DNA of 64,000 bases. It comes from Candidatus Sericytochromatia bacterium. GTDB lineage: Bacteria > Cyanobacteriota > Sericytochromatia > UBA7694. Under the pieces are notes generated by a model that worked only from the letters and a program-made list of their open reading frames with translations, did not search any database and was not told where the DNA came from. Positions 33,003 through 64,000 of this stretch are shown here, piece by piece; within the stretch, counting starts at the first letter, position 1; every line of letters begins with the position of its first letter. The stretch covers positions 229,131-293,130 of the forward strand of contig CAXRDE010000005.1 in assembly GCA_964229355.1 (NCBI GenBank). Reading direction: 5' to 3'. Both the position numbers and the translations under genes were made by a program.

Positions 33003-34601
33003 CTATCGACCTGTTTTTAAGATACGCGGTGTAACCATAATCAAGATTTCCACATCTTCTTTACTGGTTACTGTATCAGAAAACAAAGCGCCCAGCAGCG
33101 GGATGTCACCCAGTAACGGGATTTTGTTTTTCGTCTCGGTGTCGGCCTTGCGCATCAGACCGCCGATAACCACTGACTCGCCGTCTTCGACGGTTAAAAT
33201 CGTATCGACTTTACGGTTGTTGATTTCAGGAATGGTTTGCGTCCCCGCGCTTACCAATTCACCCCGTGTGGAGATTTCAGGCACGAGCTTCATGGTAATC
33301 AAACCCTTTTCTTGATCAATAAAAGGCGTGATGGTAAGTTTTTCACCAATATTGATACTTTGCACGGTTTGGGTTGCCGCCGTGGCGGTAGCCGTTGTGC
33401 TGATAACCGGATAAGCGGTAGTGGAGTCAAAGAGGGCTTGTACCCCGTGCTGAATGGTCAATCGTGGACTTGTCAAGACCCTTGCCTGACTGTCACGAAT
33501 CAAAGCGTTTAAGCGGGCGCTAAAGTTGGGAGCCAAACGACTCAAAGTGCTAAAGCTAATCAAAGACTCACCATCGGCAGCGGGGGGGTTGGGTTGCTGT
33601 CCGGGCAGCAGCGCACTGTTATTAAAGGCTGCACTGGTAGAGCCCTGACCAATTTCATAGCTAAGTCCCAATTCCTGGCTCGCCCGCTGGGTTAATTCGA
33701 TCATTTTAACTTCTACGTTGACCTGAGGTAAAGCACGGTCCAATACGGGCACCAATTGGTCAGCAATATCAATGGCTTCCTGACTACCAATCACGATCAA
33801 GGTGGCCGTGCGCTGATCGATCAACAACTCGGGCAGGGGGTTCAAGCCTCGGCGGGTATATACGGCTTTCAATTGCTGCACAATTGGAGAGTTCATGGCG
33901 GCCATGGCTCCACCACCAGCACCACCAGCCCCTCCTGCAGCACCACCACCTGCTCCACCACCAGCACCGCCGGCGCCAGCGGTCTGTACGGCAAGGGTAG
34001 CAGCCTGATTGTAGATGGTGTAGGTTTTAATCAAGGGCGAAGCAAAACCCATTTGCCCCATCTTTTCGGGGGTGGTAATAATCAGAGAATTATACACGCG
34101 ACGACCGGTTAAACCACTCATCTGTAAGACCAGAGAGAAAGCTTCACTCAGGGGAATGTCCCGCAGCTCAAGATAGGGGATGGTGGTTTTCGCCGCTACC
34201 GTGGCAGCGACGTTACCCGAGGATGCTGCAGGCGCACTATTTCCGGCAAGGGCTTCTAGCTCCATCAAAGCAGCGTCATCGCTGCTGGCAGCAGGGGCTG
34301 CCGCACTGGCAACCACGTCAGCAGCCGCGTCATTGGCCATAAAAATCAGGTTCAGACCCGCTTTTTGGGCCAGGCCGCGTAAAATAAACTCCACGTTGGC
34401 GTTACGTTGCACAATACTAATCAGTGGATCTTTATCGAGACGAAAGGCTTTACGCAGTGTGATGGCATCGGTGGCCCCGGCGACAGGAGGATTGATCACT
34501 TGTCGGGTATCAGCCCACGCGGCCGCGGGTGTTAAGGTAGACATGAGGGTCAAAGCGGCAAGCGCTGAGGTACTTTTACGTTTAAATGTAGAAATTTTCA
34601 T
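33003..34601 (-). CDS. pilQ: Type IV pilus secretin PilQ (GspD family).
   Basis: It has the C-terminal secretin signature VIGGLMRKADTETKNKIPLLGDIPLLGALF. It also has a signal peptide and an internal Gly/Ala-rich linker. Confidence 0.9.
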   Translation of the reverse strand: MKISTFKRKSTSALAALTLMSTLTPAAAWADTRQVINPPVAGATDAITLRKAFRLDKDPLISIVQRNANVEFILRGLAQKAGLNLIFMANDAAADVVASAAAPAASSDDAALMELEALAGNSAPAASSGNVAATVAAKTTIPYLELRDIPLSEAFSLVLQMSGLTGRRVYNSLIITTPEKMGQMGFASPLIKTYTIYNQAATLAVQTAGAGGAGGGAGGGAAGGAGGAGGGAMAAMNSPIVQQLKAVYTRRGLNPLPELLIDQRTATLIVIGSQEAIDIADQLVPVLDRALPQVNVEVKMIELTQRASQELGLSYEIGQGSTSAAFNNSALLPGQQPNPPAADGESLISFSTLSRLAPNFSARLNALIRDSQARVLTSPRLTIQHGVQALFDSTTAYPVISTTATATAATQTVQSINIGEKLTITPFIDQEKGLITMKLVPEISTRGELVSAGTQTIPEINNRKVDTILTVEDGESVVIGGLMRKADTETKNKIPLLGDIPLLGALFSDTVTSKEDVEILIMVTPRILKTGR

Positions 34602-51006: not shown

Positions 51007-51681
51007 CTATTGTGAAATGCTTAACGGGCCATCTTCGGGGATCGACAGCGCCGCGAGTTCAGCGAAAATATCGCGGCCTTGATCTGCAAAGTGAAGATTG
51101 CTTGCTTTAATCTTATACTTCGCTAGCACTTCTCGCAAGTTCATGGTGGTGGCATCTTGTAAAGATAAACCCAGCAAGGACAGGCCAAAAGCCACGCGAT
51201 CTTCGGTAGCAGCTTCCACTTCCAAATAAGGGGGGAGCCCCGCCCACTCGTCGATTTCAAAGAGAATGTCTTCGTAGCGAAAGCTCTGACGGAGCTTTTC
51301 GTCACTGCGCATTTGGTGGACCTCTAAGAGGCGTAAAAAAGCCCGCATCTGCTCAAAGTCGCCCACGAGGGTCTCGGTTTCTTGTGCGATTTTGTAACGG
51401 TCGCGCGAGAGCACCTGTTTAAAGGTCAAAATGACCTGTTCAGCCTGGGCGTCGTTACGGAACAAGCCGTTGGGGGTAAAACGGCGCAAACGGCGCAAAC
51501 GAATATAGCTGCCGTCTTGCTGTTCGTATAGCCGACGGTCGGCATAATCGAACATATAATTTTCTTGAAGCTCAAAACCCAGTGGCTCACAACCAGCGGC
51601 CAGAAGCCGCTCTCTCAGTAAGGGTGCATCAATGTCGAGCACCTTCACTTCAATCTCTTGCCCCATTGTGCCTTGCCCCAT
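51007..51681 (-). CDS. CYTH-domain protein (triphosphate tunnel metalloenzyme / class IV adenylyl cyclase-like).
   Basis: It has the N-terminal EIEVK (ExExK) motif. Size is about 200 aa. Confidence 0.6.
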   Translation of the reverse strand: MGQGTMGQEIEVKVLDIDAPLLRERLLAAGCEPLGFELQENYMFDYADRRLYEQQDGSYIRLRRLRRFTPNGLFRNDAQAEQVILTFKQVLSRDRYKIAQETETLVGDFEQMRAFLRLLEVHQMRSDEKLRQSFRYEDILFEIDEWAGLPPYLEVEAATEDRVAFGLSLLGLSLQDATTMNLREVLAKYKIKASNLHFADQGRDIFAELAALSIPEDGPLSISQ

Positions 51682-51687
51682 TACGCG

Positions 51688-53127
51688 CTATTGAATCGCC
51701 TGGGTTTTGGCGTTTTCAGCCACTTCTGCCGCAGAAGCCTGCAGGGCGCGGGTGGGGTTAATCAGACCATGGCCGTACAACCCGTCGACGCCAATTTCAC
51801 CGAGGTCGGTCGCGGTGTCTTCAATCCGAGCCCGCACTTCGCCGGGCTTGAGGTAGGGGTTTTGGCTCCAGATCATGGCGGCCAGGGCAGAAACCATAGG
51901 GGTTGCCATGGAAGTGCCGTTAAGGGTGGCATAATTGTTGGGCAGTCCCAGTTGGTTGGCACTGACTTCATAGGTGGGGAAGGTGGAGGTGATTTCTACA
52001 CCAGGAGCTACAATGTCGAGCTCTTCGCCACGGTTAGAAAAAGAAGCCACATATTTGTCTTCGTTCACGGCACCCACAGACATAAACTCGCTGGCAGCAG
52101 CAGGAAAGCCAATGGGTCCGCCCGCGTTGCCCGCAGCGGCAATAATCAAAGCGCCCCGTGCTTCGGCATAGCGCGACAGGTAATTGGCCAGGGTGCGCAT
52201 GGTGGAGCCACCCGAAGGAGAACCCAGACTCATATTAATGACTTTGGCACCGTTATTGGCGGCGTAAGCAATACCTTTGGCAATGTTAAACAGGCTGCCG
52301 GAACCTTTGGCATCTAAAACGCGAATGGCCAAAATTTTAACATTGGGGGCCATACCACTAATGCCTTCCTGGTTATTTAAACCGGCGGTAATAATACCGG
52401 CCACATGGGTGCCGTGGCCGTGTTCATCAAGGGGTTCAAGGTCACGGTCTATATAATCGGGGCCTTTAATAATGCGGCCGGCCAAATCAGGGTGGGTATA
52501 GTCAACACCGGTATCTAAAACCGCGACGGTCAAACCGCTTTCGCCCACACCGTAATCGGTCCACACCTGGTTCATGTTTAAAGCAGAGAGGTACCATTGT
52601 TGCTGGGTCAGGGGATCCGCGGCCTGCACTTTGACGGTCTGGTTTTGGGCCTTTGTGCCGCTGGCAGGTAGGGGTTGTGGGGTAACCACCACTTCGTCGT
52701 CATCGCTGCCAAACCACTTTTTAATGCGCTCTTTCAGGGTCATTTGCACTTTAAAATTCACGTTGGGAATGGCAAATTCCACCTGAGGATCTGCGTTGTA
52801 TTGAGAGAGGGCATCTTCGAGCTTGACACCCTGGGGCAAGCGTTGCAACTGGGTGCTGGAGTCGTTAAAAGCATCAAGAACCTGAGCGCCAGAGAGAGTG
52901 CGCTGCGCCTGGGTGGAGAACCCTGCACGGTATTTGACAATCACTTCGTCTTTGATGGTTTCAGCCACGGTGGTTTCGGCCACCGGGGTGTTGCGCTGGG
53001 GCACCAGGCTGGCAAGGGTTTGTGTAGGTTGTTGAGAGGCCACCGGAGCCAAGGCCTGACCGCTACAGGCGGTCATCAAAAGGGCAGAAACCACGGGGGT
53101 GAGGTGACGAAGAATCTGTTTTTTCAT
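51688..53127 (-). CDS. Subtilisin-like serine protease (S8) lipoprotein with an I9 propeptide.
   Basis: The catalytic-triad motifs are VLDTGVDYTHPDL (Asp), HGTHVAGI (His) and GTSMATPMV (Ser). The lipobox is LMTAC. Confidence 0.9.
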   Translation of the reverse strand: MKKQILRHLTPVVSALLMTACSGQALAPVASQQPTQTLASLVPQRNTPVAETTVAETIKDEVIVKYRAGFSTQAQRTLSGAQVLDAFNDSSTQLQRLPQGVKLEDALSQYNADPQVEFAIPNVNFKVQMTLKERIKKWFGSDDDEVVVTPQPLPASGTKAQNQTVKVQAADPLTQQQWYLSALNMNQVWTDYGVGESGLTVAVLDTGVDYTHPDLAGRIIKGPDYIDRDLEPLDEHGHGTHVAGIITAGLNNQEGISGMAPNVKILAIRVLDAKGSGSLFNIAKGIAYAANNGAKVINMSLGSPSGGSTMRTLANYLSRYAEARGALIIAAAGNAGGPIGFPAAASEFMSVGAVNEDKYVASFSNRGEELDIVAPGVEITSTFPTYEVSANQLGLPNNYATLNGTSMATPMVSALAAMIWSQNPYLKPGEVRARIEDTATDLGEIGVDGLYGHGLINPTRALQASAAEVAENAKTQAIQ

Positions 53128-53589
53128 AAGGTATGCGCTCTCTCTACTACAAACTGTATCTTAGTTATACCCCATTTTGGCTTCAAAAATCTTAAGGGCA
53201 GTTTATTATCGGCTCAATTTTTGGATAAAAAGAACAGCTTCAATGATTAAAGCCCATCGCCTTACAAAAAAGAGGTCCAAAAAAGCAGGTTTTGGAGCTT
53301 AAATTTTGGTTAAGCACACATTCAAACATCCATACCTTTGAACACTTATTACATCCACAAGAAAAACCGACAAACACTATCTTACAGCTTGTTTCTACAA
53401 TTTCACCGTGCCATAAAACACTGAAATACCGCAAGATTTTTTAATGTTTGTTTATTATTTTAAGCACAAATTAACCACAAATTTACAAAACCACATATTT
53501 TATCGTCTTTTTGGACGACAGACAAAAAAAGCAAGGGGTGTTATGGTCTCTGTAATAAGCAAAGACAACGCTTGTGTTGCTTTTTTGTA

Positions 53590-56241
53590 ATGGAAGCTTT
53601 CGCTGTGATTCGACATGTTTCAAAATTATCCTGGTTCAGTTATGTGCTCAGCGCTTTGTTATTGATCTCGTGTAGCACGACACCGACTCATCCGCCAACG
53701 CAAGCCTCAGTCATGTCTGCGCCGCCTGTTACAATACAGCAAGCCCAGAATACACCACTCCCCCCAAAAGAGAAACTCACGCTCAGTCAGCCTATGACAG
53801 GAGTAATTGGTGTACCTTTGTCTGATTTTCAGCTTCAGGGTGAAGATAAGATAGATTTTGAACTCCCTTTGAGCCTTCCTATTTCGCGCTCCGGCATCAA
53901 AGAGGGCACAGGTATGCTGTACTTAAGTGGAGGCAACGAAAATTGGAATGCAGCAGGTTTGGTAACTGCCCGGTTTTCTATTGTACCTCAGACCAATGGA
54001 ACCACACTCATGCGTTTAGAAGCAGGTAAATCGAGTGGTCCTTATACCTACTATGTCAGCGCTTCAGGCATTGTCAATGGCATCCCTGAACTCAAAGAGG
54101 GAAGCAGTATTTCAGCCCCTTTAAATTTTTCTGAATCTAAATACTCCATCAGTCACGATAATACAGGGGGCTCTAGAAACTATGTGTTTGAATCAGGTGT
54201 TATTCAAGCCAGTGTCAACGGTGAACAAATCACCGTAGGTATTTCAGGAATGACCTCCAGCAGAATGACCTGGAAGGAATGCTACTCCTGGGGAACGGGT
54301 AGCGCTTGTTATGATCGCTCCGATAGCACCAAATCACTACTGGGTGGCAACATTCAGTTTATTTCACCCATTGCTAAAAAAGAATTAAGCTTAGAACTCA
54401 AAGCTGACCAGGACGGTATTGGCAACACCTTTGCCAGCGAGTCCGGTGATCTGGCCTTACAGTCTGTTTTGGGCGTTGATACCTTTGGCTCACAAGAGCC
54501 CTGGACCCTGCGCATTAAAAAAGATGGGGCCACGGGCACAGCCACAGGTGATAACTGCTGGGATAGCTACACCTCAGGCGGTACGGGTAAAAAGGACAAT
54601 GCCTACACCTTAGATGCTTCTAAACTGGGCAATGGCACTTATACCGTTGAAGCGTATTACAGCGCCTACCCCGATGAAAAGGCAACGGTGACGGTGGAGG
54701 TCAAGAATAAAACCCAGGTCACCGTGATCGAAAACCCGAGCTTCTACCCTGTTCAGCAAAACACCAAACTCGAAGTCTGGGCTCCTGCGTGCGAAAGCGC
54801 CTGGGATTTAAAATTCACAGGCGCGGTCAATGATCCTGACAACGCCGAAGAACCTGTCCAGTGCAGCTTTTCTCGCACCGGCACTACCGCCAACCCCATG
54901 CAACCGGCCTCGGTGTTATGGGATGGGGTCTGCGAAGACAAGCTCGCCCGTGATGATTGGAATGTGGAGCTGAGCACTGAGTCAGACGGTGATGCGACTT
55001 CGGTGACGGCCCTGTGTTGTGGCAGCGTAACATTGGAAGCGGATCAAGAGGCCATTTCACCGGGCACTGTAGACGGAAACTTTGATAGCGTCAATTTTAA
55101 GGTGCGCTCTAGCACTGGTAAACCCTGGGAGCTGAGCATTCGGGGCAATACCCCTGGCCCCTTGGATGAGCGCGGCCTGCCCACCGCAGGGCCTGAATGT
55201 ACGTGGTCAGCGTCTGGCTCGGAATCAGAAAAAACCATCAACTGGAAGGGAACCTGCGATGGGGGTGCAATGGTGGATGGGCAATATACAGCCACCCTGC
55301 GCTCTGAAGATCAAGAAGACAGTGTGCCCATTATGATAGATAACACAGCACCTGTGTTTGGCGAACTCCTGGCGATTCCACGTTTTGATGGCCGCACGGA
55401 CTACTCGATTACCGTGCAGGATCCTCTGGTGAATGGTGTAGCCTCAGGCCTTAAAGACCTGGCCTCGCTACAATTGCAAGCCAGTGTAGGCGGCGAAAAC
55501 ACCCAGTTGGCTGACCTGCGTATGGATGCGGGTGACTTTTCGATTACCAGCACCGGCGGGCAAACCTATACCTTGCGATTTACCTATGCAGGGACCAATG
55601 CCCTTTTGTTACGCGGTTTGGATTTATTGGCGAATGTGGGGAGCAATGCAAAGACTCCAAAATTGCTTACAAAAAGATGTAAGAAACAAGGCATTACCCT
55701 TTTAAATGCCTATGATTACTATCGAGTGCGTCAAGGGGAAAATAGAGCGATAACTCTTTATTTCTTAGTCGACAGTCCAGGAGATGGATACAATCGTCCC
55801 TACCCTCCCCACAAACAGTTTGAACAAAGTATTAAAGCTTACTCCAGCTTATCGGGAGCAAAAAACCTTATTCCTGCTTCTAACTTTTCTTTTGAGAACT
55901 TAAAAGCAGATCGGGTAGGAATAGCAATGTGGATGTATGGTTATCCAACTGCTGGTGGTGGAGTAACACCACATCTTTTAGAAGGGGTGAGTCCAGGTAA
56001 ATTTTTAGACTCAGGCTTACCTTTTAGACAAATACGTTCTAATGGCCAGTGGGTGTCAGGACCTTATTTAGCTAAGGGGCAGTTGCTACTTATGATTTCC
56101 CCAGACCTCAATTTAGTGTCTTATACAAACCAAATGCTAACCATTGAGGTGCCCAACTCACAAAACAATAATAAAACGGTGTTTAATTTAAATTTAAAAA
56201 AAGGAGTAAGCAATACATGGTCAGAAATCACATGTCTATAA
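53590..56241 (+). CDS. Large surface lipoprotein with tandem Cys-containing Ig-like domains and an AT-rich C-terminal extension of about 200 aa; candidate polymorphic-toxin delivery protein. The ORF is open from 53572.
   Basis: It has a signal peptide and the lipobox LLISC. The Ig-like domain carrying PAC...C...W.G.CED..RD.W recurs at 57033 onwards. Codon usage and GC drop at about 55610. Confidence 0.65.
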   Translation: MEAFAVIRHVSKLSWFSYVLSALLLISCSTTPTHPPTQASVMSAPPVTIQQAQNTPLPPKEKLTLSQPMTGVIGVPLSDFQLQGEDKIDFELPLSLPISRSGIKEGTGMLYLSGGNENWNAAGLVTARFSIVPQTNGTTLMRLEAGKSSGPYTYYVSASGIVNGIPELKEGSSISAPLNFSESKYSISHDNTGGSRNYVFESGVIQASVNGEQITVGISGMTSSRMTWKECYSWGTGSACYDRSDSTKSLLGGNIQFISPIAKKELSLELKADQDGIGNTFASESGDLALQSVLGVDTFGSQEPWTLRIKKDGATGTATGDNCWDSYTSGGTGKKDNAYTLDASKLGNGTYTVEAYYSAYPDEKATVTVEVKNKTQVTVIENPSFYPVQQNTKLEVWAPACESAWDLKFTGAVNDPDNAEEPVQCSFSRTGTTANPMQPASVLWDGVCEDKLARDDWNVELSTESDGDATSVTALCCGSVTLEADQEAISPGTVDGNFDSVNFKVRSSTGKPWELSIRGNTPGPLDERGLPTAGPECTWSASGSESEKTINWKGTCDGGAMVDGQYTATLRSEDQEDSVPIMIDNTAPVFGELLAIPRFDGRTDYSITVQDPLVNGVASGLKDLASLQLQASVGGENTQLADLRMDAGDFSITSTGGQTYTLRFTYAGTNALLLRGLDLLANVGSNAKTPKLLTKRCKKQGITLLNAYDYYRVRQGENRAITLYFLVDSPGDGYNRPYPPHKQFEQSIKAYSSLSGAKNLIPASNFSFENLKADRVGIAMWMYGYPTAGGGVTPHLLEGVSPGKFLDSGLPFRQIRSNGQWVSGPYLAKGQLLLMISPDLNLVSYTNQMLTIEVPNSQNNNKTVFNLNLKKGVSNTWSEITCL
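54625..54710 (+). repeat. Copy 1 of an ~86-bp direct repeat, about 94% identical to 57033..57118.
   Basis: The segment ctgggcaatggcac(t/c)tataccgttgaagc(g/c)tattacagcgcctacccc(g/a)atgaaaa(g/a)gc(a/c)acggtgacggtggaggtcaagaa encodes LGNGTYTVEAYYSAYP(D/N)EKATVTVEVKNK. Confidence 0.85.
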
Positions 56242-57032
56242 AAATAAGTGTAAGTTGTGCTTTGGCAATGTTTTTAGTATTAACTACTGCTTTCGCAGAG
56301 AGTATCATCAATGATTCGCTCCAGTCTTGGTTTTATAGCGGAAGAGATGTTTCAATGAGCAGAGATCAGTATTTTGAATCTGTTGTTGGTGGGACTGTGG
56401 AAGCAGCTTCTCAAAAAGATTTTCATTATAGTCTAACCAATTTTCCTGTTCTTCTTGGTAACTTCAGCACCTTGGATATAGAAAAATTTATCGTTACCAG
56501 TGGCTTTCCTGAAAATTTTGAACTAGAGATAGAGTCTGACTTAAAAAGTGTGGATAACAATCTGTTTGAAGAAATTCAAATCGATGGCAAACAAGTACTC
56601 AAAGCAAGTGTACTTTACTACAAACAATCAAACTTAACCCCCCATGCTGCAGGCTATTATTTTCATACCTCAAACCAGAGCTATGCCAATTTTCTATTTC
56701 AGTTTGCGAATGTCTACCACACCAAAGACACGCCTTACTACCAGGAGATCAGACAACGGGCCAAACCCACTCATAATATCCTCCCCAATCAAAAGGGCAA
56801 TAAACCTATTATCAAGGGCGAAAACATCACCTTTTACCACCTCGACCGCAACGATGGCTACATTGAAACCTATGGCTTTCGTAAGCCCAAAGGCAACGAG
56901 CTGAAAGGCGTGGAACAAATTCTTGTGTTGCAGGCCATTTACCCGGCGGCGCAAATGGCGGAACTGGCGGGGCCGTTAACAGAGTTGTTTGTGAAAGAAG
57001 TGCAACAGCATCAGGCGGTGTGGGGCTACTAG
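56217..57032 (+). CDS. Secreted hypothetical protein, AT-rich; candidate cognate immunity protein. It overlaps the upstream gene by 25 bp.
   Basis: It has the signal peptide MSIKISVSCALAMFLVLTTAFA. Its C-terminus ...EVQQHQAVWGY* recurs as a degraded copy at about 60226. Confidence 0.5.
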   Translation: MVRNHMSIKISVSCALAMFLVLTTAFAESIINDSLQSWFYSGRDVSMSRDQYFESVVGGTVEAASQKDFHYSLTNFPVLLGNFSTLDIEKFIVTSGFPENFELEIESDLKSVDNNLFEEIQIDGKQVLKASVLYYKQSNLTPHAAGYYFHTSNQSYANFLFQFANVYHTKDTPYYQEIRQRAKPTHNILPNQKGNKPIIKGENITFYHLDRNDGYIETYGFRKPKGNELKGVEQILVLQAIYPAAQMAELAGPLTELFVKEVQQHQAVWGY

Positions 57033-57118
57033 CTGGGCAATGGCACCTATACCGTTGAAGCCTATTACAGCGCCTACCCCAATGAAAAAGCCACGGTGAC
57101 GGTGGAGGTCAAGAACAA
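57033..57118 (+). repeat. Copy 2 of the ~86-bp direct repeat. It begins on the nucleotide after the TAG stop of 56217..57032.
   Basis: See copy 1. The same reading frame is open from 57033. Confidence 0.85.
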
Positions 57119-59069
57119 AGCAGAGTTGAAAGTGATTGGCAACGCTGCGTTTACACCGCCTGGGGAAGAAGTGACCTTACAGGCGACTTTTCCGGCCTGT
57201 TCAGAAGGCCATGTAACCTTAGAAGGCGCAACGCAAAGCCTATTTGAAGAGGCTGAGCCTGAGACGTGCAGTTTACGCATCTTAGAAACACCCGGTGTAG
57301 GCGCACAGCAGACCCTTAACTTTGTTTGGAATGGCATGTGTGAAGACGTAATCAGTCGTGATCTTTGGACTGCAGATTTATGGGTGGATGAGGAGATTAA
57401 AGACTCCCAAACCTTAGATCTTTTGGGTGATTCACCATCCTGTGAAGAAACGCCTTTGACGCCCGAAGACCTCAATGAAATGCTTTCGTTGATCAATCAG
57501 CTTTCGTTGTTTTCAAACTCGGGCTTTGGTATTCAGTCTGTGGATGTGGCTTCAGGAGATGCCTTAAAAACCTTTGTACAACAAAAATCCAAAATGGAAA
57601 AGGCCTATACTCAACTGGCCGAATTGGGATACCCAGTCGCACAAATTCAAGAAACCAGCACCCAAGACGGTTTGCCTGCTGCAAGCTCTTTCCCCCAGGC
57701 CAAGTCAATAGAACGTCAACTCAATGCTTATTTTGAAGCCAAAGCTCAGCGCGATATTGCCAGGGCTCAGTACAAAAGCTTTTTAAACACTCTTGAGACT
57801 GAAATAGTAGCTTTAAAAACGTACTCTCAGTCTTTCTTTGGAATCCCGTTTGAAGATTACGCTGGTGAGCAAAGAAATCCCTCAATTTTGTTTTATAAAG
57901 ACCTGGTGGACGACGCCGTTGCAGATACACAGCTCTTTTTGTCTGAAAAAACAGTCCCCGATTTATTGCTTGCGATGCAAACCTACACCAATTTGTTGAG
58001 CATTTTTTATGAGTTGTCTCACCAGTATCTTGAGGGTGAAGTGAGTGCACTAGAGGGAGTCGATGCATACGAATATGAGAAGTTAAATCCCGAAAAGTTA
58101 AATACACCTCACCAGTTGATCAAATATGTTCAACGCACATTGCAAAACCTCAATGAAAAAATCAACAGCCGTCATCAGGCCCTAGACGAAGAGCTAGGTC
58201 AGTTATTCGCAGAAGCTGAGGAAATTTCCAATACCTTGGATCAGCTTGAGGCAGAAGCTGAAGCCATTGATCAAAGCGATGCTGAGCTCTTGGCAGAATG
58301 GGAAGCGTTTCTAAACGAAGAAGCGCAAGAAGAGAGCGATGGTGGTTTTTCGGTCCAGTCAGACATTGAGAACCCTATTCCTGATGCGGGACTACCCAAT
58401 GGGTATTACGGCCGTGGGAACACACCCGGCTCCACCACAAACTACGCACGTCAGTATTATAGTAAATCTGGTAAGCCGGTACGCCCTGAAAAAATACAGC
58501 GTGTTCAGCTGAATCAATCCCGCTCTACTAACATGGTAAATTATCGCCAGGGCGTGTTAGCAAACCAAAGAGCAAATCTCAGTCGTGTCAACACACAAAT
58601 TCGCCGGTACGAAAGAGGCATTGAACAAGCTAAAAAAACTGGAAATAGCCAGTTGCAACAGCGACTTGAGTTGGCTAAACGACGCGCTGAAGGGCAACGT
58701 AAAAAGTTTGAAGATAATGTTCGGCGCAATGAGGATCTTTTACAAAAAGCAAAAACGGAACAAGGAAGAGCTCGTAAAAGTTCCAATCAATCAGACAGAA
58801 AAATACAATGTACAAAGGTGCCAGCAGCTTATTATCGAAATGTGCCGAGACCATTGAGAGGTGAAGACGGCTATGTAAATTTGGACAAATTTACTCAAAA
58901 ACAAAACATAGGGGCAGAAACAAGATTTGTTGACCCAAAATCAGGATACTACTTGGGTAAAGATCGAGCGGGTGGAAATAGTCATAATGGAAGTAAGTGG
59001 AAGCTTAAGTCTCCTTCGGGAAAGCGCTTGGGAACACTAACTCCAGAAGGGAAATATCTTAGAGAGTAG
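57096..59069 (+). CDS. Orphan-module-like ORF (GTG at 57096 in the track; frame open from 57033 with no upstream start or signal peptide). It has an Ig-like domain, a coiled-coil and a basic C-terminal domain.
   Basis: It shares a frame with 56217..57032, separated only by a TAG. The N-terminal 33 aa are nearly identical to residues ~352-384 of the upstream lipoprotein. The C-terminus is ...GKDRAGGNSHNGSKWKLKSPSGKRLG. Confidence 0.5.
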   Translation: MTVEVKNKAELKVIGNAAFTPPGEEVTLQATFPACSEGHVTLEGATQSLFEEAEPETCSLRILETPGVGAQQTLNFVWNGMCEDVISRDLWTADLWVDEEIKDSQTLDLLGDSPSCEETPLTPEDLNEMLSLINQLSLFSNSGFGIQSVDVASGDALKTFVQQKSKMEKAYTQLAELGYPVAQIQETSTQDGLPAASSFPQAKSIERQLNAYFEAKAQRDIARAQYKSFLNTLETEIVALKTYSQSFFGIPFEDYAGEQRNPSILFYKDLVDDAVADTQLFLSEKTVPDLLLAMQTYTNLLSIFYELSHQYLEGEVSALEGVDAYEYEKLNPEKLNTPHQLIKYVQRTLQNLNEKINSRHQALDEELGQLFAEAEEISNTLDQLEAEAEAIDQSDAELLAEWEAFLNEEAQEESDGGFSVQSDIENPIPDAGLPNGYYGRGNTPGSTTNYARQYYSKSGKPVRPEKIQRVQLNQSRSTNMVNYRQGVLANQRANLSRVNTQIRRYERGIEQAKKTGNSQLQQRLELAKRRAEGQRKKFEDNVRRNEDLLQKAKTEQGRARKSSNQSDRKIQCTKVPAAYYRNVPRPLRGEDGYVNLDKFTQKQNIGAETRFVDPKSGYYLGKDRAGGNSHNGSKWKLKSPSGKRLGTLTPEGKYLRE

Positions 59070-59075
59070 TTATGT

Positions 59076-59558
59076 ATGTGGCCAGACAAACATTTTTTAG
59101 CGAGTATAACTAGTTTAGGTATTGACGATTTTTTGGAAACTTTGCAAAAGCAACGTGTTTCCCAACTGTTTTTTAGTTATCATCCAAGAATTCTTACCGA
59201 GGAGGAGTCACAAAATACCAAAATGTTTTATGGGGAGTTTTTAGGTACCTCAGAGCTATCTTTATACTATGTTTTTGAGCACAAGATGATAAAAGCACTT
59301 GGTACTTTACATTATCAATCTCCAATTTTCTGGTTTGAACAAGAACGCCTTCAGCTTGAAACTGAGAACTCGTTGAGACAACATATACAACTTGGATTAC
59401 GAGATGAGGCATTGGGGCTATTCTTTGTACCTGACAAAAAAATTTTAATGGTAACGGGCTATGACTTAACATGGATGGCATACTTTTTTTCCCCTGAAAA
59501 CAATAATTTTTTCACGGACATCCTTAAAAATAATGCTATTAACTATTGGCATGTTTAG
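59076..59558 (+). CDS. Small hypothetical cytoplasmic protein, AT-rich; candidate immunity protein.
   Basis: It is a 160-aa ORF starting 7 bp after the stop of 57096..59069. Confidence 0.45.
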   Translation: MWPDKHFLASITSLGIDDFLETLQKQRVSQLFFSYHPRILTEEESQNTKMFYGEFLGTSELSLYYVFEHKMIKALGTLHYQSPIFWFEQERLQLETENSLRQHIQLGLRDEALGLFFVPDKKILMVTGYDLTWMAYFFSPENNNFFTDILKNNAINYWHV

Positions 59559-59747
59559 GTCTTGTGAACAGAATCATTTGAGCAAATATTGAGCGACCAT
59601 TAAAAGCACCACAAAAACAATGATGGAAAATGTCTTTGGGTTTCTTTAGACTCTTAGATTTATGAAACCCGAAGAACAAACTTTTTGGGGTTCTGAATGT
59701 CGCCCAACACCGATTAACATAAATATAAAAGAGCTAAAGTAAAAACA

Positions 59748-60185
59748 ATGGATGACTTATATTCTGAAATCATTTATGAAAAAGATGAAATTGAGGTGTT
59801 CTGCGGCTATTTTTTAACGGGCAACAACTTTGACCTGAACACACTTACCAACCTTTCTGGGGTTGAACCCACATACAGTTATAAAAAAGGCGAACAAACA
59901 AAGGGAGGAGTCCGTTATCAAGAGGACTGTTGGGGAGTGAGTTCACGTGGGCAAATTACTTCAAATAAACTCAGTGATCATCTTGAGTATGTACTAAGCC
60001 GAGCATTTATCGTACAAGAGAAAGTAATGGACTATATTGAGTCAGAATCGATTACCGTCACTTTTGAGGTAATTTTTGAGGGTGATGTCTCTGGAACAGG
60101 TCCGATTATTCCCAATTTTTGGCTCTTAAAAATAGCGCAGCTAAAACACGTCGATTTATGTTTTGAAATTTATAATTACGGTTAA
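59748..60185 (+). CDS. Small hypothetical cytoplasmic protein, AT-rich.
   Basis: It is a 145-aa ORF. Confidence 0.4.
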   Translation: MDDLYSEIIYEKDEIEVFCGYFLTGNNFDLNTLTNLSGVEPTYSYKKGEQTKGGVRYQEDCWGVSSRGQITSNKLSDHLEYVLSRAFIVQEKVMDYIESESITVTFEVIFEGDVSGTGPIIPNFWLLKIAQLKHVDLCFEIYNYG

Positions 60186-60267
60186 AAGCTTTTCTCATGT
60201 TAAACGTCAATTATTTATTCAGGAGGTGCAACAGCACAAGGCACTCTGGGGATACTCGCCCCTTTGA
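60145..60267 (+). pseudogene. Remnant of the 3' end of a paralog of the 56217..57032 gene. It encodes ...LFIQEVQQHKALWGYSPL*, compared with ...LFVKEVQQHQAVWGY* in that gene.
   Basis: The open stretch is about 40 codons with no start codon. The DNA is about 80% identical to the 57001-57032 region. Confidence 0.45.
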
Positions 60268-60656
60268 TTGGGCGTGTAAAATTAGCGGTTATGTTAGAAG
60301 AAGCGGAAGCATTAATTCAATCCAGGGCTGAAATCCATAAAGGAGATAGTGCAGATTACCTTACCATAGAGTCAGCTTTGGCTGTCCTTGAACTTTTTAT
60401 CGCTGATGGTGAAATCGGCGTGCTAGGCATCGACTGTTTTTACATCACTCCAGAGAGGACACTCGCACTTTTAGATATGACGTTGGATCTTTCACGAGAT
60501 TTCCCACGGAAGAGCAAAGATTACATGGATCTAAGCAAAACGGAGTGGTTTAAACTTCTTAATCTTTCAGCACAAAACTTTTTACGTTTTCTAAAGGATA
60601 ATGATGATATTTCAAAAAAAGATTTTTATGTGGAAATAATTTTCACTGACGCCTAA
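60264..60656 (+). CDS. Small hypothetical cytoplasmic protein, AT-rich.
   Basis: It is a 130-aa ORF in the track, with a TTG start. The likely ATG lies at about 60291. Confidence 0.4.
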   Translation: MIGRVKLAVMLEEAEALIQSRAEIHKGDSADYLTIESALAVLELFIADGEIGVLGIDCFYITPERTLALLDMTLDLSRDFPRKSKDYMDLSKTEWFKLLNLSAQNFLRFLKDNDDISKKDFYVEIIFTDA

Positions 60657-60715
60657 ACCTCAATCATCGTCAAACCGCGAAACCAACGCCATACCCATAA
60701 ATTAAGGTAAATCAT

Positions 60716-61228
60716 ATGATTATTGCACTCGATTTAAAACAAGTCTCTCACCACAAGATAGAGCAAGAGTTGGATGAGAAAGGGCTTATACTTACTTATC
60801 TTGCACTGAGCCTTGGTAATGATTATTGCATTATAGACATTGTTTCATCAACGGATTATTCTGATGTATTAGAGAATTTATGGGTAGAGAGTGAGCGTGA
60901 AGGATATTCTAATGCACTCTCACGCATCCAAACTGCCTTACAATACCCGCCATCGATAGCATTGGCTTTTTGCAGGGCAGAGGTCACACCATCTTCAAAT
61001 CTAAGCTTATCTCGATTTGTACAAGCGTTTGCAAAAGATGTCACCGAGCAACTCGATAATGTAGAAAAAGATGGTTTTCATTTACGGAAAGTGATTCAGA
61101 GTGATGACTTTGAACTTCGTTTACATGAGTATTACTGGGTTAAAGTTGTGAATCATGAGAAATGTCTATGGGTATCTCTAGACTATCAACTCTATGAAAC
61201 CTCTCGACACAACTTTCTTGGACTATAG
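60716..61228 (+). CDS. Small hypothetical cytoplasmic protein, AT-rich.
   Basis: It is a 170-aa ORF. Confidence 0.4.
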   Translation: MIIALDLKQVSHHKIEQELDEKGLILTYLALSLGNDYCIIDIVSSTDYSDVLENLWVESEREGYSNALSRIQTALQYPPSIALAFCRAEVTPSSNLSLSRFVQAFAKDVTEQLDNVEKDGFHLRKVIQSDDFELRLHEYYWVKVVNHEKCLWVSLDYQLYETSRHNFLGL

Positions 61229-61301
61229 AGGCAGCAAGATGAATATGAAAGGTTTTTCCAGAGGCAAACATGTTTCTTGAACGCTTAGGAGCACGAAAAA
61301 A

Positions 61302-61676
61302 TTGACAGAAGCAGAAATTAGGCAAAAGATAGAAGCAGGGCTCATGACGGTAACTATTGAAGATTTTTATGCTTATGCAGAAGCTCTCAATGTGGATGTA
61401 AATCAGGGATTTGACAATTTGGCACTTTTGTATGCCAGTGCGTTTATGAGAGGAGAAATTTCCTATGAAGATGCAGACGACATTTTAAATACAATCTGGT
61501 GGTTTATGTGTCGTTCTAAGGCAGAAGGTTTTGCTAACCTTGCCTATTCCATCTACGAAGCTTTTGACGCAGGGGAGTTTTCTCGCAAAGAAGGTGAAGA
61601 TCCCGTCCAAACCTATACCATTCCCATGTTACAAGAGATATTTAACGCTTTGGACTTTACTCACGGATCACAATGA
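61302..61676 (+). CDS. Small hypothetical acidic protein, AT-rich.
   Basis: It is a 124-aa ORF. Confidence 0.4.
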   Translation: MTEAEIRQKIEAGLMTVTIEDFYAYAEALNVDVNQGFDNLALLYASAFMRGEISYEDADDILNTIWWFMCRSKAEGFANLAYSIYEAFDAGEFSRKEGEDPVQTYTIPMLQEIFNALDFTHGSQ

Positions 61677-62070
61677 GGATCTCTTATATATTCTGCTCTT
61701 AGTGGCTTCTCTTCTAACTTTTTCACATGTACAATGTCAGGCTCACTTTCGGTCACCACTTCAACAAAGGTCATACCTGTGATAATTCGCCATGCATAAA
61801 TGGCGTTTCCCATCCGGCTATTTCCACCTCATCTTTTTTCATACTTCTTTATCCTTCAAAAGATATACTGCGTGAAATGCAGCGGCCCATGCAATAAGGT
61901 ATACAAGAGAGACAGGTAGCCGTAAGTCGTCGGCTATGCTGTCATTTAAAATAGCTTAACATCCAAACACGATGAATCCTGAAAAAAAGATTTTGGTGCA
62001 GCATGACAGAAGAACAACTCAAAGATAAATTTTGCAATGCCCAAGGCACAAGCCGAGTTCGGAGGTAGAC

Positions 62071-62523
62071 ATGCCCCAATACGTTTACCGTCTTTATCAC
62101 TGGCGCGATGAGGACAATGATGAAACCTACAAAGAGATTGGCCATTATTCAAGCCGAGAAAAGGCCGCTCAGGTAATTGAAAAGTACAAAACCCTCCCAG
62201 GTTTTTATGCTTACCCGGATTGCTTCACGATCGATAAAGTGGAGATCGATCGTGACTTCTGGACAGAAGGGTTTAACGTTTATCTGGTACAGGTTCCTCT
62301 CAAAGGCAAAAGTGGCTATGCGACTGTGCGTGCACGGGGGGAGTTTATGATGGCTTTTCAGGAACTCTGGTATGGCTTGTTTGAGGTGATCAGCAACCAC
62401 AAAGAAGAAGACTTGCTCTATCCCCTGGACGCGGTGGTCAAAGCCACAGATACAAAACCGCTACAGGCCATTGAAATGATGTCTGAAGACTTTGAGAGCT
62501 TTTTAAACAAGTACAATCTTTAG
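62071..62523 (+). CDS. Hypothetical protein. The start was chosen at the Met that has a GGAGG Shine-Dalgarno; the ORF is open from 62032.
   Basis: The sequence reads ggaggtagacATG. It is about 150 aa. Confidence 0.45.
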   Translation: MPQYVYRLYHWRDEDNDETYKEIGHYSSREKAAQVIEKYKTLPGFYAYPDCFTIDKVEIDRDFWTEGFNVYLVQVPLKGKSGYATVRARGEFMMAFQELWYGLFEVISNHKEEDLLYPLDAVVKATDTKPLQAIEMMSEDFESFLNKYNL

Positions 62524-62586
62524 GTGCCTCTCCGCCGAGCGGCCTTAAACCGGTGCTATAATTGGCGAAAAACATGGAGCCTTGCC

Positions 62587-62934
62587 GTGAACCCTAGCCC
62601 TTCTGACATCACCCTCAAAGACGCCCAGGCGCAGGTAGATACCTGGATCAAAACCCTGGGGGTTCGCTATTTTTCGGAGTTGACCAATTTGGCCCAGCTC
62701 GTCGAAGAAGTGGGCGAACTGGCGCGGATTTTATCGCGTACCTATGGCGAACAGAGCTTTAAGGCGGGCGAAAGCGGCGAGCACCTGGCAGATGAAATGG
62801 CGGACGTGCTCTTTGTGCTGATCTGCCTGGCCAATCAGACAGGTGTGGATCTCACCGCAGCGCTCCAGGCCAATCTGGCTAAAAAAACAAAACGGGATGC
62901 CACCCGTCATCTGGAGAACCCCAAACTGCAATGA
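62587..62934 (+). CDS. MazG-like nucleotide pyrophosphohydrolase domain protein (a GTG start is proposed; the ORF is open from 62524).
   Basis: The MazG motifs are EEVGELARIL and EHLADEMADVLFVLICLAN. Confidence 0.6.
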   Translation: MNPSPSDITLKDAQAQVDTWIKTLGVRYFSELTNLAQLVEEVGELARILSRTYGEQSFKAGESGEHLADEMADVLFVLICLANQTGVDLTAALQANLAKKTKRDATRHLENPKLQ

Positions 62935-63806
62935 GCCCCTCTCTTTTTTCTTCACTGGTCTACCGTTTGAGCTTAAGCTGTCTGAGTTTAGGCTTACTTA
63001 GCGCCTGCCCCGCAAACCAAAGCGCCGACAATGAAACCACGCCGCCTAAAGCCCAACAGGCCGCGGGCGATCTGGTGGAAAGCTTCTGGAAAGCCCCTGC
63101 CGCTTATCCCACCGACGCCACCCGGGCTGAACAGGTCAAATATGGCGAGGCCCTGGTACAAAAGACCCACGCCTACCTGAGTCCTGCGGCACCGGATCCC
63201 GCCCTGCGGGTGGCGGGCAACCACCTGGCCTGCAAAAACTGCCACCTCGACAACGGCAAGGCCGCTCATGCCGTGGGTTTTATTGGTATTGATCGGCGCT
63301 ATCCCGCGTATTATGCGCCACAAGATCGTGAAGTCACCCTGGCGGAGCGGATTGAGGCCTGCTTTCAGGGCAGTCTTAATGGCCAAAAACCACTGCCCGC
63401 CAAAGAACGCGAGGCCCTGACCGCCTACCTCACCTGGCTGGGCGAAGATGTGCCCATGACTGCCCCACTGCCGCTGCCGGAGTCGGGATTACCTGAGCTG
63501 CAAACCGACAGCACCACCGGCAACGGCGACGTGGAGGCGGGCAAACCGCTGTATGAATACCACTGTGCCGCCTGCCACGGTAAAACGGGCCTGGGACTGG
63601 CCGCAGACCCCAAGGATTTATCCAAAGGCTATACCTTCCCACCGCTGTGGGGGCCTGACAGCCACAGTCAGCGTTCAAGCCTGGCCAACACGCAGACTGC
63701 CGCCCGCTACATTCACAAGAACATGCCCCTGGGTCGTGCGGTCTTGACCACTTCTCAGGCCTTAGATATTGCTGCCTATATCAACGCCCAGGAACGCCCG
63801 CAATGA
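62931..63806 (+). CDS. Diheme c-type cytochrome lipoprotein (TsdA / thiosulfate dehydrogenase-like).
   Basis: It has two CXXCH motifs, CKNCH and CAACH, and the lipobox LLSAC. Confidence 0.6.
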   Translation: MSPSLFSSLVYRLSLSCLSLGLLSACPANQSADNETTPPKAQQAAGDLVESFWKAPAAYPTDATRAEQVKYGEALVQKTHAYLSPAAPDPALRVAGNHLACKNCHLDNGKAAHAVGFIGIDRRYPAYYAPQDREVTLAERIEACFQGSLNGQKPLPAKEREALTAYLTWLGEDVPMTAPLPLPESGLPELQTDSTTGNGDVEAGKPLYEYHCAACHGKTGLGLAADPKDLSKGYTFPPLWGPDSHSQRSSLANTQTAARYIHKNMPLGRAVLTTSQALDIAAYINAQERPQ

Positions 63807-64000
63807 GCCCGGAACAGGCCAATTTTTTAGGTTTGCTGGCGGGCACCCTCACCACCATTTCTTTTGTGCCGCAGGTGTGGCACACCTGGAAAACCCGCTC
63901 CGCCAAAGACCTCTCGCTGGGCATGCTGCTGATTTTCACCCTGGGTATTGCCCTCTGGCTCATTTATGGCCTTTGGATGCAGGCCGCGCCCCTGATCGCC
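63802..64000 (+). CDS. Partial CDS for a PQ-loop / SemiSWEET-like small membrane protein (its 3' end lies outside the window).
   Basis: The sequence MSPEQANFLGLLAGTLTTISFVPQVWHTWKTRSAKDLS has the PQ motif. Its ATG overlaps the cytochrome stop (ATGA). Confidence 0.5.

Follow-up and report, generated by a model that had tools for sequence, protein, structure and literature searches.

Why should a stop codon fall exactly at the edge of a repeat, in frame with the coding sequence on either side of it? The question is raised by a 64,000-nucleotide stretch (here called the window) of contig CAXRDE010000005.1 from a Candidatus Sericytochromatia bacterium, in which one TAG separates two open reading frames (ORFs) and the base after it opens a direct repeat whose first copy lies within an upstream lipoprotein gene. 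An initial annotation of this DNA had taken the repeat as the trace of recent recombination and as a potential cassette switch. We consider it likely that this is a polymorphic toxin locus, assembled as C-terminal toxin and immunity cassettes displaced one another in turn, and that in it the repeat and the TAG are ordinary anatomy and call for no special mechanism. This reading draws on the architecture of the locus, its homologies, the co-variation of toxins with partner genes, and the fused form of the downstream module that is found in other genomes.

Alignment of both copies and their flanks, a check that the initial annotation had proposed, established that the repeat is real: positions 54625–54710 and 57033–57118 align without gaps and are near-identical, at 80 of 86 nt, which is 93% and not the ~94% first given. 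The six mismatches fall at repeat positions 15, 30, 49, 57, 60 and 84, leaving perfect runs of 14, 14, 18, 7, 2 and 23 nt, the longest being 23 nt. A repeat search lengthens the 54625/57033 pair to 111 nt at 86% identity, and a 26-nt core is present at exactly two places in the window (0 expected from 100 shuffles). As had been claimed, the first copy is internal to the lipoprotein gene, where it lies in codon phase within the 889-amino acid (aa) ORF 53572–56241. Upstream of 54625/57033 the sequences in repeat register agree at 5 to 10 of 30 positions per window, the level of chance, with 8 of 30 just 5′ of the edge and 28 of 30 from there on; agreement stays at 27 to 28 of 30 through three windows before it decays. 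Because identity jumps in this way from chance to 27–28 of 30, the left edge is a sharp breakpoint in the DNA, and it falls directly behind the stop codon. The flanks are diverged, as the initial annotation had it, but on the right there is only gradual decay, the repeat fading into 47% protein identity over 117 aa (residues 352–467 of the lipoprotein). It was also correct that the two ORFs share a frame and are parted by the TAG alone: ORF 56217–57032 and the frame 57033–59069 translate as 951 codons with a sole internal stop, TAG at 57030–57032.

The upstream gene, which we call the main gene, probably starts at GTG 53605, the point from which the homolog P0004 aligns, and a lipobox (LLISC) can be read directly from its translation (...SALLLIS-C-STTP). 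The lipobox cysteine is conserved in the homologs P0002, P0004, P0005 and P0006; P0003 is without its N-terminus. The protein comprises an N-terminal domain (residues 1–270), a junction block (~271–373), Ig-like domains and a C-terminal module, CT-A (~686–889). Pfam and NCBIfam scans named no family for the N-terminus, giving weak sub-threshold matches only, and had no match for CT-A. The N-terminal half is the constant part, which would serve export as a lipoprotein and presentation. Only three relatives of CT-A (the C-terminal 204 residues) were recovered by HMMER among 1.84 billion representatives, and its AF2 model is a generic β-sandwich with no diagnostic fold match; the models of CT-A and of CT-B, the tip of the downstream module described below, are both of low confidence (mean predicted local distance difference test score, pLDDT, 61–62). 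PDB sequence searches with the main protein, the downstream module and CT-B returned noise only (keratin coiled-coil, anion channel). The main protein is absent from a 15-billion-protein collection, with no self-match and with one start variant looked up exactly and missing, and its three downstream neighbors are present there; the source annotation may lack the protein as called here or use another start codon.

Five homologs of the main protein, P0002 to P0006 (813–1213 aa), match only its N-terminal ~50% and have unrelated C-termini, and the boundary past the LGNG block is sharp in the family alignment. An Ntox33 domain closes P0002 (E 4.2e-11) and a Colicin_E5 ribonuclease domain closes P0003 (E 4.9e-19), both above the Pfam cut-offs. 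The partner genes co-vary with these C-termini. Ntox33 pairs with a DUF4279 gene in two loci, one on contig L001 and one in the window (as a remnant plus gene); Colicin_E5 pairs with a 134-aa gene on contig L005, a partner also found in the window; CT-A pairs with a 271- or 278-aa signal-peptide protein in the window and on contigs L086 and L087–L090; and P0006 pairs with an ankyrin-repeat protein. The family amounts to six proteins among 5.8 billion, and we detected no member on scanning 185,579 species-representative genomes with the family alignment or JGI metagenome contigs with two alignments. It is thus very small and appears undescribed: a superficial literature search (cyanotoxin and ecology papers by titles and abstracts) gave no paper tying such toxin systems to Sericytochromatia.

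The product of the ORF closed by the TAG (immA), 271 aa long, carries a Sec-type signal peptide and has no family match in Pfam and NCBIfam scans. On contigs L087–L090, the gene for a 278-aa signal-peptide homolog comes after a CT-A-like module, with an identical 25-nt overlap; this homolog is 33% identical to the window protein and their C-termini are flush. On L086 the start of such a signal-peptide gene overlaps a CT-A module likewise. There CT-A is itself a 5′-truncated orphan (L086 positions 1283–2416, with homology from main residue 535), preceded by unrelated genes, an S41-peptidase-like gene and a 169-aa pentapeptide-like ORF, and the truncation points are therefore not fixed. The 271-aa protein is probably the immunity partner of CT-A, and exported. 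Because the 278-aa homologs stop at the same alignment column and travel with CT-A, the TAG is the natural stop of the signal-peptide gene and not, as the initial annotation allowed, a sequencing error or a readthrough context.

What lies beyond the TAG is an orphan module of 678 codons that has no signal peptide and no obvious start, its frame being closed on the 5′ side by the stop of immA. Homology to the toxin family starts abruptly at 57033, equivalent to main codon 352, and the module consists of a stub of the junction block, an Ig-like domain, a helical region of ~350 aa, a basic patch and a tip of ~90 aa, CT-B. A search of 5.8 billion proteins gave three matches. P0001 is the database product of the orphan itself (655 aa, from a GTG-started ORF at 57102–59069). 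P0002 (1007 aa) is 82% identical to the orphan over P0002 residues 350–981, and P0003 (969 aa) is 71% identical over its C-terminal two thirds. P0002 is a complete lipoprotein, in which the first ~350 residues are main-like and the remainder is collinear with the orphan. Given that the full-length P0002 and P0003 carry the same module and end in toxin domains, the orphan is a toxin gene of the same family that has lost its head and keeps the C-terminal two thirds; the downstream ORF is thus a module, as the initial annotation called it. In the helical region the ratio of nonsynonymous to synonymous substitution rates (dN/dS) is 0.11 against P0002 and 0.10 against P0003; the orphan body did not drift as a pseudogene over most of this divergence. 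Promoter and terminator consensus sequences in the low-GC island around the locus did not exceed the level of shuffled sequence (21 matches against 14.6 ± 3.7, and 7 against 8.1, respectively), and the scans were uninformative on orphan expression.

CT-B has no Pfam or NCBIfam match, and a word-indexed search with the 122-aa orphan tip found no match. A single-sequence structural model (pLDDT 62) had as its best PDB match the colicin-E3-like CdiA-CT of E. cloacae (4ntq_A), with an E value of 0.013 and a target template modeling (TM) score of 0.52, which is below the significance level of the tool and without sequence-level support. Directly 3′ of the orphan is a 160-aa ORF (immB), which has no family match and forms a singleton cluster. 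We treat CT-A and CT-B as putative toxins, and immA and immB as their putative immunity genes. Two further observations concern the end of the orphan. A basic patch, RRAEGQRKKFEDNVRRNEDLLQKAK, stands directly before the toxin tip in the orphan, P0002 and P0003, and could be a cleavage site. An inner swap point also lies around 58700–59069: the ~350-aa helical region is common to the orphan, P0002 and P0003, and the tips beyond it (~90–130 aa: CT-B, Ntox33 and Colicin_E5, respectively) are unrelated, with P0003 departing earlier (after ...YYSKS) than P0002.

Downstream of immB the window holds what look like older layers of the same kind (Table 1). Window DNA is identical to L001 from the last Ntox33 codons into the next gene, a DUF4279 gene 83% identical to the one directly 3′ of the Ntox33 toxin of P0002 on L001. 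DUF4279 corresponds to the immunity family FdL-Imm5, and FdL families partner Ntox33 among other toxins (PMC9424270). The ORF at 60264–60656 is 71% identical to the 134-aa gene directly 3′ of the Colicin_E5 toxin of P0003 on L005; its 3′ spacer and the start of the following ORF (60716) are also conserved with L005, and we found no toxin remnant upstream of it.

Table 1. Features of the toxin locus, with the basis of each assignment
Feature	Position in window	Strand	Basis or remark
Main gene, lipoprotein polymorphic-toxin-family protein, 889 aa	53572..56241	+	ORF translation, homology to P0002–P0006
Repeat copy 1	54625..54710	+	3′ end of family-wide junction block (LGNGTYTVEAYYSAYPDEKATVTVEVKNK), inside main gene, in phase
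immA, 271-aa protein with Sec-type signal peptide	56217..57032	+	Overlaps main gene by 25 nt, ends at TAG
Repeat copy 2	57033..57118	+	Opening 86 nt of orphan module; begins at base following TAG
Orphan (5′-truncated) toxin module, 678 open codons	57033..59069	+	Translation, homology to P0002/P0003
immB, 160-aa ORF, putative immunity gene for CT-B	59076..59558	+	Starts 7 nt past orphan stop; position and size
Decayed 3′ remnant of Ntox33 toxin gene (...INIKELK*)	59689..59743	+	tblastn of P0002 residues 993–1007
DUF4279 protein, 145 aa, putative orphan immunity gene for Ntox33	59748..60185	+	Pfam E 6.7e-12
130-aa ORF, putative orphan immunity gene for Colicin_E5-type toxin	60264..60656	+	Homology 60291–60653

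We propose that this order would have arisen as follows. CT-A would be the variable module that the main gene deploys at present, with immA as its partner. An incoming cassette made up of the junction block, CT-A and immA would have integrated at the junction block, either through one crossover with a circular intermediate or through illegitimate recombination aided by homology, and would have shoved the resident module downstream, cutting it inside the junction block and leaving the 86-nt stub, and with it the repeat, as a scar. The orphan would then be the previous C-terminal half of such a gene, accompanied by its own partner gene at 59076–59558, and the Ntox33 tail with the DUF4279 gene, followed by the Colicin_E5-type immunity gene, would be older layers. 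Most likely the orphan serves as a mostly silent reservoir, and the retained immunity genes protect against neighbors that carry those toxins. A RecA-dependent deletion through the stub might reunite CT-B with the N-terminus, with CT-A and immA lost in exchange.

The repeat lies in the family-wide junction block. Its 29 codons encode LGNGTYTVEAYYSAYP(D/N)EKATVTVEVKNK, of which 18 positions are invariant in seven of seven aligned sequences and 28 codons are under strong amino-acid constraint across the family, within a block, LGNGTYTVEAYYSAYPDEKATV, that is nearly invariant. Of the six mismatches between the main and orphan copies, five are synonymous and the other is the D/N change, which gives a synonymous divergence (dS) of ~0.30 (5 of ~20 synonymous sites), and over the first 66 nt of the block the main copy matches the orphan at 61 positions and P0005, from another metagenome, at 60. 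Given this dS and the equal closeness of P0005, the high identity of the repeat comes largely from amino-acid conservation and is not proof of recent recombination or conversion, the conclusion that the initial annotation had drawn from it. Between the main gene and P0005 or P0006, nucleotide identity is 82–90% over codons 271–330, and 90% and 72%, respectively, over codons 331–360, compared with 33–58% before the block and 36–56% after it. The orphan, in turn, carries a main-type block on a P0002-type body: its block matches the main copy at 81 of 87 nt and that of P0002 at 65 of 87, and its dS to P0002, 0.65 over the helical part, is at least 1.6 (at or near saturation) over the block. These comparisons mark the junction block as a real recombination boundary, family-wide, on an evolutionary timescale.

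Four other explanations were weighed. That the repeat is an assembly artefact, from a collapsed or chimeric contig join, would suit metagenome-assembled-genome-type data, in which repeats are classic points of misassembly, and a contig of the Logan assembly of run SRR28144605 (L002) does begin inside the main gene, at 54009; however, the two copies differ at six positions and have unique flanks, and L002, the product of a second assembler, matches window positions 54009–64000 over 9992 nt with 0 mismatches, including both repeat copies and the TAG, although it was possibly built from the same reads as the window assembly. The gene order is also paralleled in other samples, by CT-A followed by the 278-aa gene and by the orphan CT-A of L086, and we regard an artefact as very improbable. 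The start of L002 within the N-terminal region of the main gene could reflect strain heterogeneity or low coverage there. We give scarcely any credence to the idea that the TAG is a sequencing error, a readthrough site or a recoded codon and that 56217–59069 encodes one 950-aa protein. The two ORFs do lie in one frame with a single stop between them, but a shared frame has a one-in-three prior and as a coincidence carries little weight alone; the second assembly has the same base; and the toxin part would begin in the middle of a conserved domain. We rejected reassignment of TAG, as this codon ends 14 of the 52 large ORFs in the window, among them a conserved ATPase and a secretin, and we rejected a fusion of immA with the orphan, as toxin-family similarity is absent 5′ of the TAG and begins exactly after it, and the 278-aa homologs of the upstream protein end there.

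The remaining alternatives accept the repeat and differ on how it came to be, or on what it does. Recent gene conversion, or a very recent duplication, could have homogenized the two 86-bp copies, which would account for a block that is 93% identical amid adjoining sequence at ~40–55% and for an orphan block much nearer to the main copy than to that of its nearest relative, P0002. Against this stand the family-wide constraint on the codons, the synonymous divergence and the proximity of P0005 set out above, and an older crossover at the junction would account equally well for the main-type block of the orphan; we find recent conversion quite improbable. Alternatively, the repeat may be an active switch that deletes 54625–57032 at appreciable frequency and so exchanges CT-A for CT-B. 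On simulating the deletion (2408 bp), we obtained a single in-frame ORF of 1018 aa, in which main residues 1–351 joined to the orphan run collinear with P0002 (71% identical over 904 residues); the fusion of the lipoprotein N-terminus to the downstream module with loss of ~2.4 kb, as the initial annotation had foreseen it, is thus structurally sound and yields a natural architecture. The orphan ORF is moreover intact over all its codons and under purifying selection, and recombination between a main and an orphan Rhs gene has been selected experimentally in Salmonella (PMC3967940). However, the homology here is six times shorter than in that precedent and is broken every 2–23 nt. The efficiency of RecA-dependent recombination drops steeply below roughly 25–50 nt of perfect identity, and the repeat makes a poor substrate for RecA. 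The deletion would also be irreversible, with immA lost too; no fused form occurs in assemblies or in the protein database; and no recombinase gene was seen in the island by Pfam/NCBIfam-type scans. With 86 bp of homology in short perfect runs and no fused form found, present-day switching is doubtful, and we judge an active switch rather unlikely. A past displacement that left the repeat as its scar explains it no less well, and we rate a scar with a silent reservoir above an active switch. Two further candidates were set aside: microhomology at the junction is, by eye, no more than expected by chance, and a recombinase-mediated cassette system would need an integrase, of which the island has none, the only rve-like ORF lying on an unrelated contig, L087.

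Layered displacement, the reading that we prefer, has several points against it. At 86 bp and 93% identity, with no perfect run beyond 23 nt, the stub is both short and imperfect, so that switching today may be very rare, and among 5.8 billion proteins there is no fused variant, the sole 100% match being the orphan itself. immB owes its probable role to position alone, and only about six family members and a few loci, mostly on short contigs, stand behind the generalizations. In its favor we count base composition, which marks the island as foreign: G + C content is 34–46% over most of 53000–62500, rising to 50–56% only in the middle of the main gene (~54250–55750) and around the repeat (~56750–57250), and is 52–62% in the flanks.

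The closest parallel is with the Rhs loci of Enterobacteriaceae. In Salmonella Typhimurium (STM0291/STM0292), main and orphan Rhs genes can recombine via a 522-bp region of 95% identity, after which the orphan toxin is deployed (Koskiniemi 2014, PMC3967940). As in these loci, a main gene and its immunity gene are followed in the window by a headless toxin fragment, devoid of start and export signals, with a conserved stub and an immunity gene of its own, the orphan C-terminus occurs on full-length genes elsewhere, and recombination at the stub would fuse main and orphan and remove the main immunity gene. Unlike them, the window locus has no RHS/YD repeats, PAAR, VgrG or type VI secretion system (T6SS) context in Pfam and NCBIfam scans; its constant part is a lipoprotein with Ig-like domains; its stub measures 86 bp at 93%, compared with 522 bp at 95%; what is swapped is a very large unit (~540–680 aa, Ig and helical regions included); and the host is Sericytochromatia-like. 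The older layers recall Vibrio cholerae, where T6SS orphan immunity arrays are accompanied by effector 3′ ends, where each orphan resembles the effector-immunity pair of another genome, and where homology-facilitated illegitimate recombination, with insertion anchored at a conserved 5′ region, has been proposed (Kirchberger 2017, PMC5361080). Both have orphan immunity genes stacked 3′ of the active pair, some with the displaced 3′ end of an effector; the delivery system and the families are others, and here the displaced module is almost whole, at 678 codons.

Cassette logic of this kind, a conserved block with swappable toxin and immunity parts, is general to polymorphic toxins (Zhang 2012, PMC3482391). 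The window locus follows it in having a conserved boundary motif, here the nearly invariant block given above, and toxin and immunity cassettes arrayed downstream, as do contact-dependent inhibition (CDI) systems and the MafB systems of Neisseria. In CdiA, a VENN motif marks the boundary between constant and variable parts, and CDI and MafB loci carry promoterless toxin/immunity cassettes arrayed downstream. It differs in that no two-partner secretion (TPS) domain, CdiB or MafB N-terminal domain matches the main protein; RHS, TPS and MafB domains were all missing from the Pfam and NCBIfam results for the main protein and for the orphan. As lipoproteins with type II signal peptides, variable C-termini (including nuclease and tRNase domains) and a 3′ immunity gene, the SitA polymorphic toxins of myxobacteria (Vassallo 2017, PMC5562445) resemble the main protein in its lipobox, variable C-termini and 3′ immunity-type gene. 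The taxon is different, and delivery by outer-membrane exchange is unsupported for the window locus: no sitB-like gene and no TraA/TraB were seen within the 64 kb, and the weak Pfam and NCBIfam matches of the main protein include no SitA-named family, though no comparison aimed at SitA was made. By its sequence organization the locus would seem to work like Rhs, CDI and MafB loci and the V. cholerae arrays, without being a member of those families. The class of mechanism is already known from Rhs/CDI-type orphans, and what is new is a lipoprotein family in Sericytochromatia. The carrier is mildly new, a tiny lipoprotein toxin family of an uncultured, non-photosynthetic sister lineage of the cyanobacteria, and the locus offers two candidate toxin-partner pairs, a clean natural case of layered cassette displacement, and an example of genes that, though very divergent elsewhere, cross over at a short conserved block.

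Elsewhere in the window, a large cluster resembling type IV pilus and type II secretion systems (16616–37719) includes a secretin (33003–34601), an SLT transglycosylase (29223–31535) and two T2SSE ATPases, one of which (18955–21270) has an N-terminal response-regulator receiver and an MshEN domain. The DeaD helicase encoded in the window has its best genome match, at 76% identity, in a Candidatus Sericytochromatia metagenome-assembled genome. With a secretin and type II/IV secretion ATPases in a Sericytochromatia lineage, the host is taken to be diderm. Beside the toxin gene, divergent from it and outside the low-GC island, is a gene for an S8 subtilisin/mycosin-like peptidase (51688–53127, minus strand; TIGR03921 E 3.3e-72, just below cut-off). 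On L001, the only other contig with enough upstream sequence, the 7.7 kb ahead of the P0002 toxin contain no S8 gene; the rest of the family contigs are too short to judge the linkage. In Gram-positive bacteria, S8 peptidase-associated polymorphic toxin systems (S8-PTS) pair S8 peptidases with Ntox33/DUF4279-type toxins (Li, Tan, Zhang 2022, PMC9424270). The window locus shares with S8-PTS the toxin-immunity vocabulary (Ntox33 with DUF4279/FdL-Imm5, and BECR RNases), the basic patch before the tip and an adjoining S8 peptidase; it differs in that its S8 gene is divergent and is not linked near P0002, in its diderm host, and in toxins that are lipoproteins.

A wider reading, which we put forward as possible but tentative, is that these proteins form an undescribed, lipoprotein-anchored polymorphic toxin family, Sericytochromatia-like, with two nested swap points, possible release by an S8 peptidase and new modules. 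The outer point would be the invariant LGNG...EKATV block, at which halves of ~540–680 aa (Ig, helical and toxin regions) are exchanged; the inner point would lie ~90–130 aa from the C-terminus, past the basic patch, and an exchange there would replace the toxin tip alone (Ntox33, Colicin_E5 or CT-B). The neighboring S8 peptidase might release this tip, which would make the system a diderm counterpart of the Gram-positive S8-PTS. If this is so, two new toxin-immunity types would be present, CT-A paired with the exported 271-aa protein and CT-B paired with the 160-aa one.

The island continues past the Colicin_E5-type immunity gene with small plus-strand ORFs at 60716–61228 (170 aa, the ORF whose start is conserved beside the L005 immunity gene), 61302–61676 (124 aa), 62032–62523 (a DUF7336 protein) and 62524–62934 (a MazG-like pyrophosphohydrolase). 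The ORFs at 60716–62934 may be further orphan immunity or accessory genes. A transfer RNA (tRNA) scan of 48–64 kb found none, and there is therefore no tRNA-linked island boundary in that interval. On the other side, adjoining the S8 peptidase gene, 51007–51681 (minus strand) encodes a CYTH/class IV adenylate-cyclase-like protein (TIGR00318 E 1.7e-09, below cut-off). The window has no Phd/YefM pair at the position upstream of the main gene. Such an antitoxin gene lies divergently upstream of the lipoprotein toxin gene on two unrelated contigs, L001 (6836–7352) and L004 (321–584), accompanied on L001 by a YoeB toxin.

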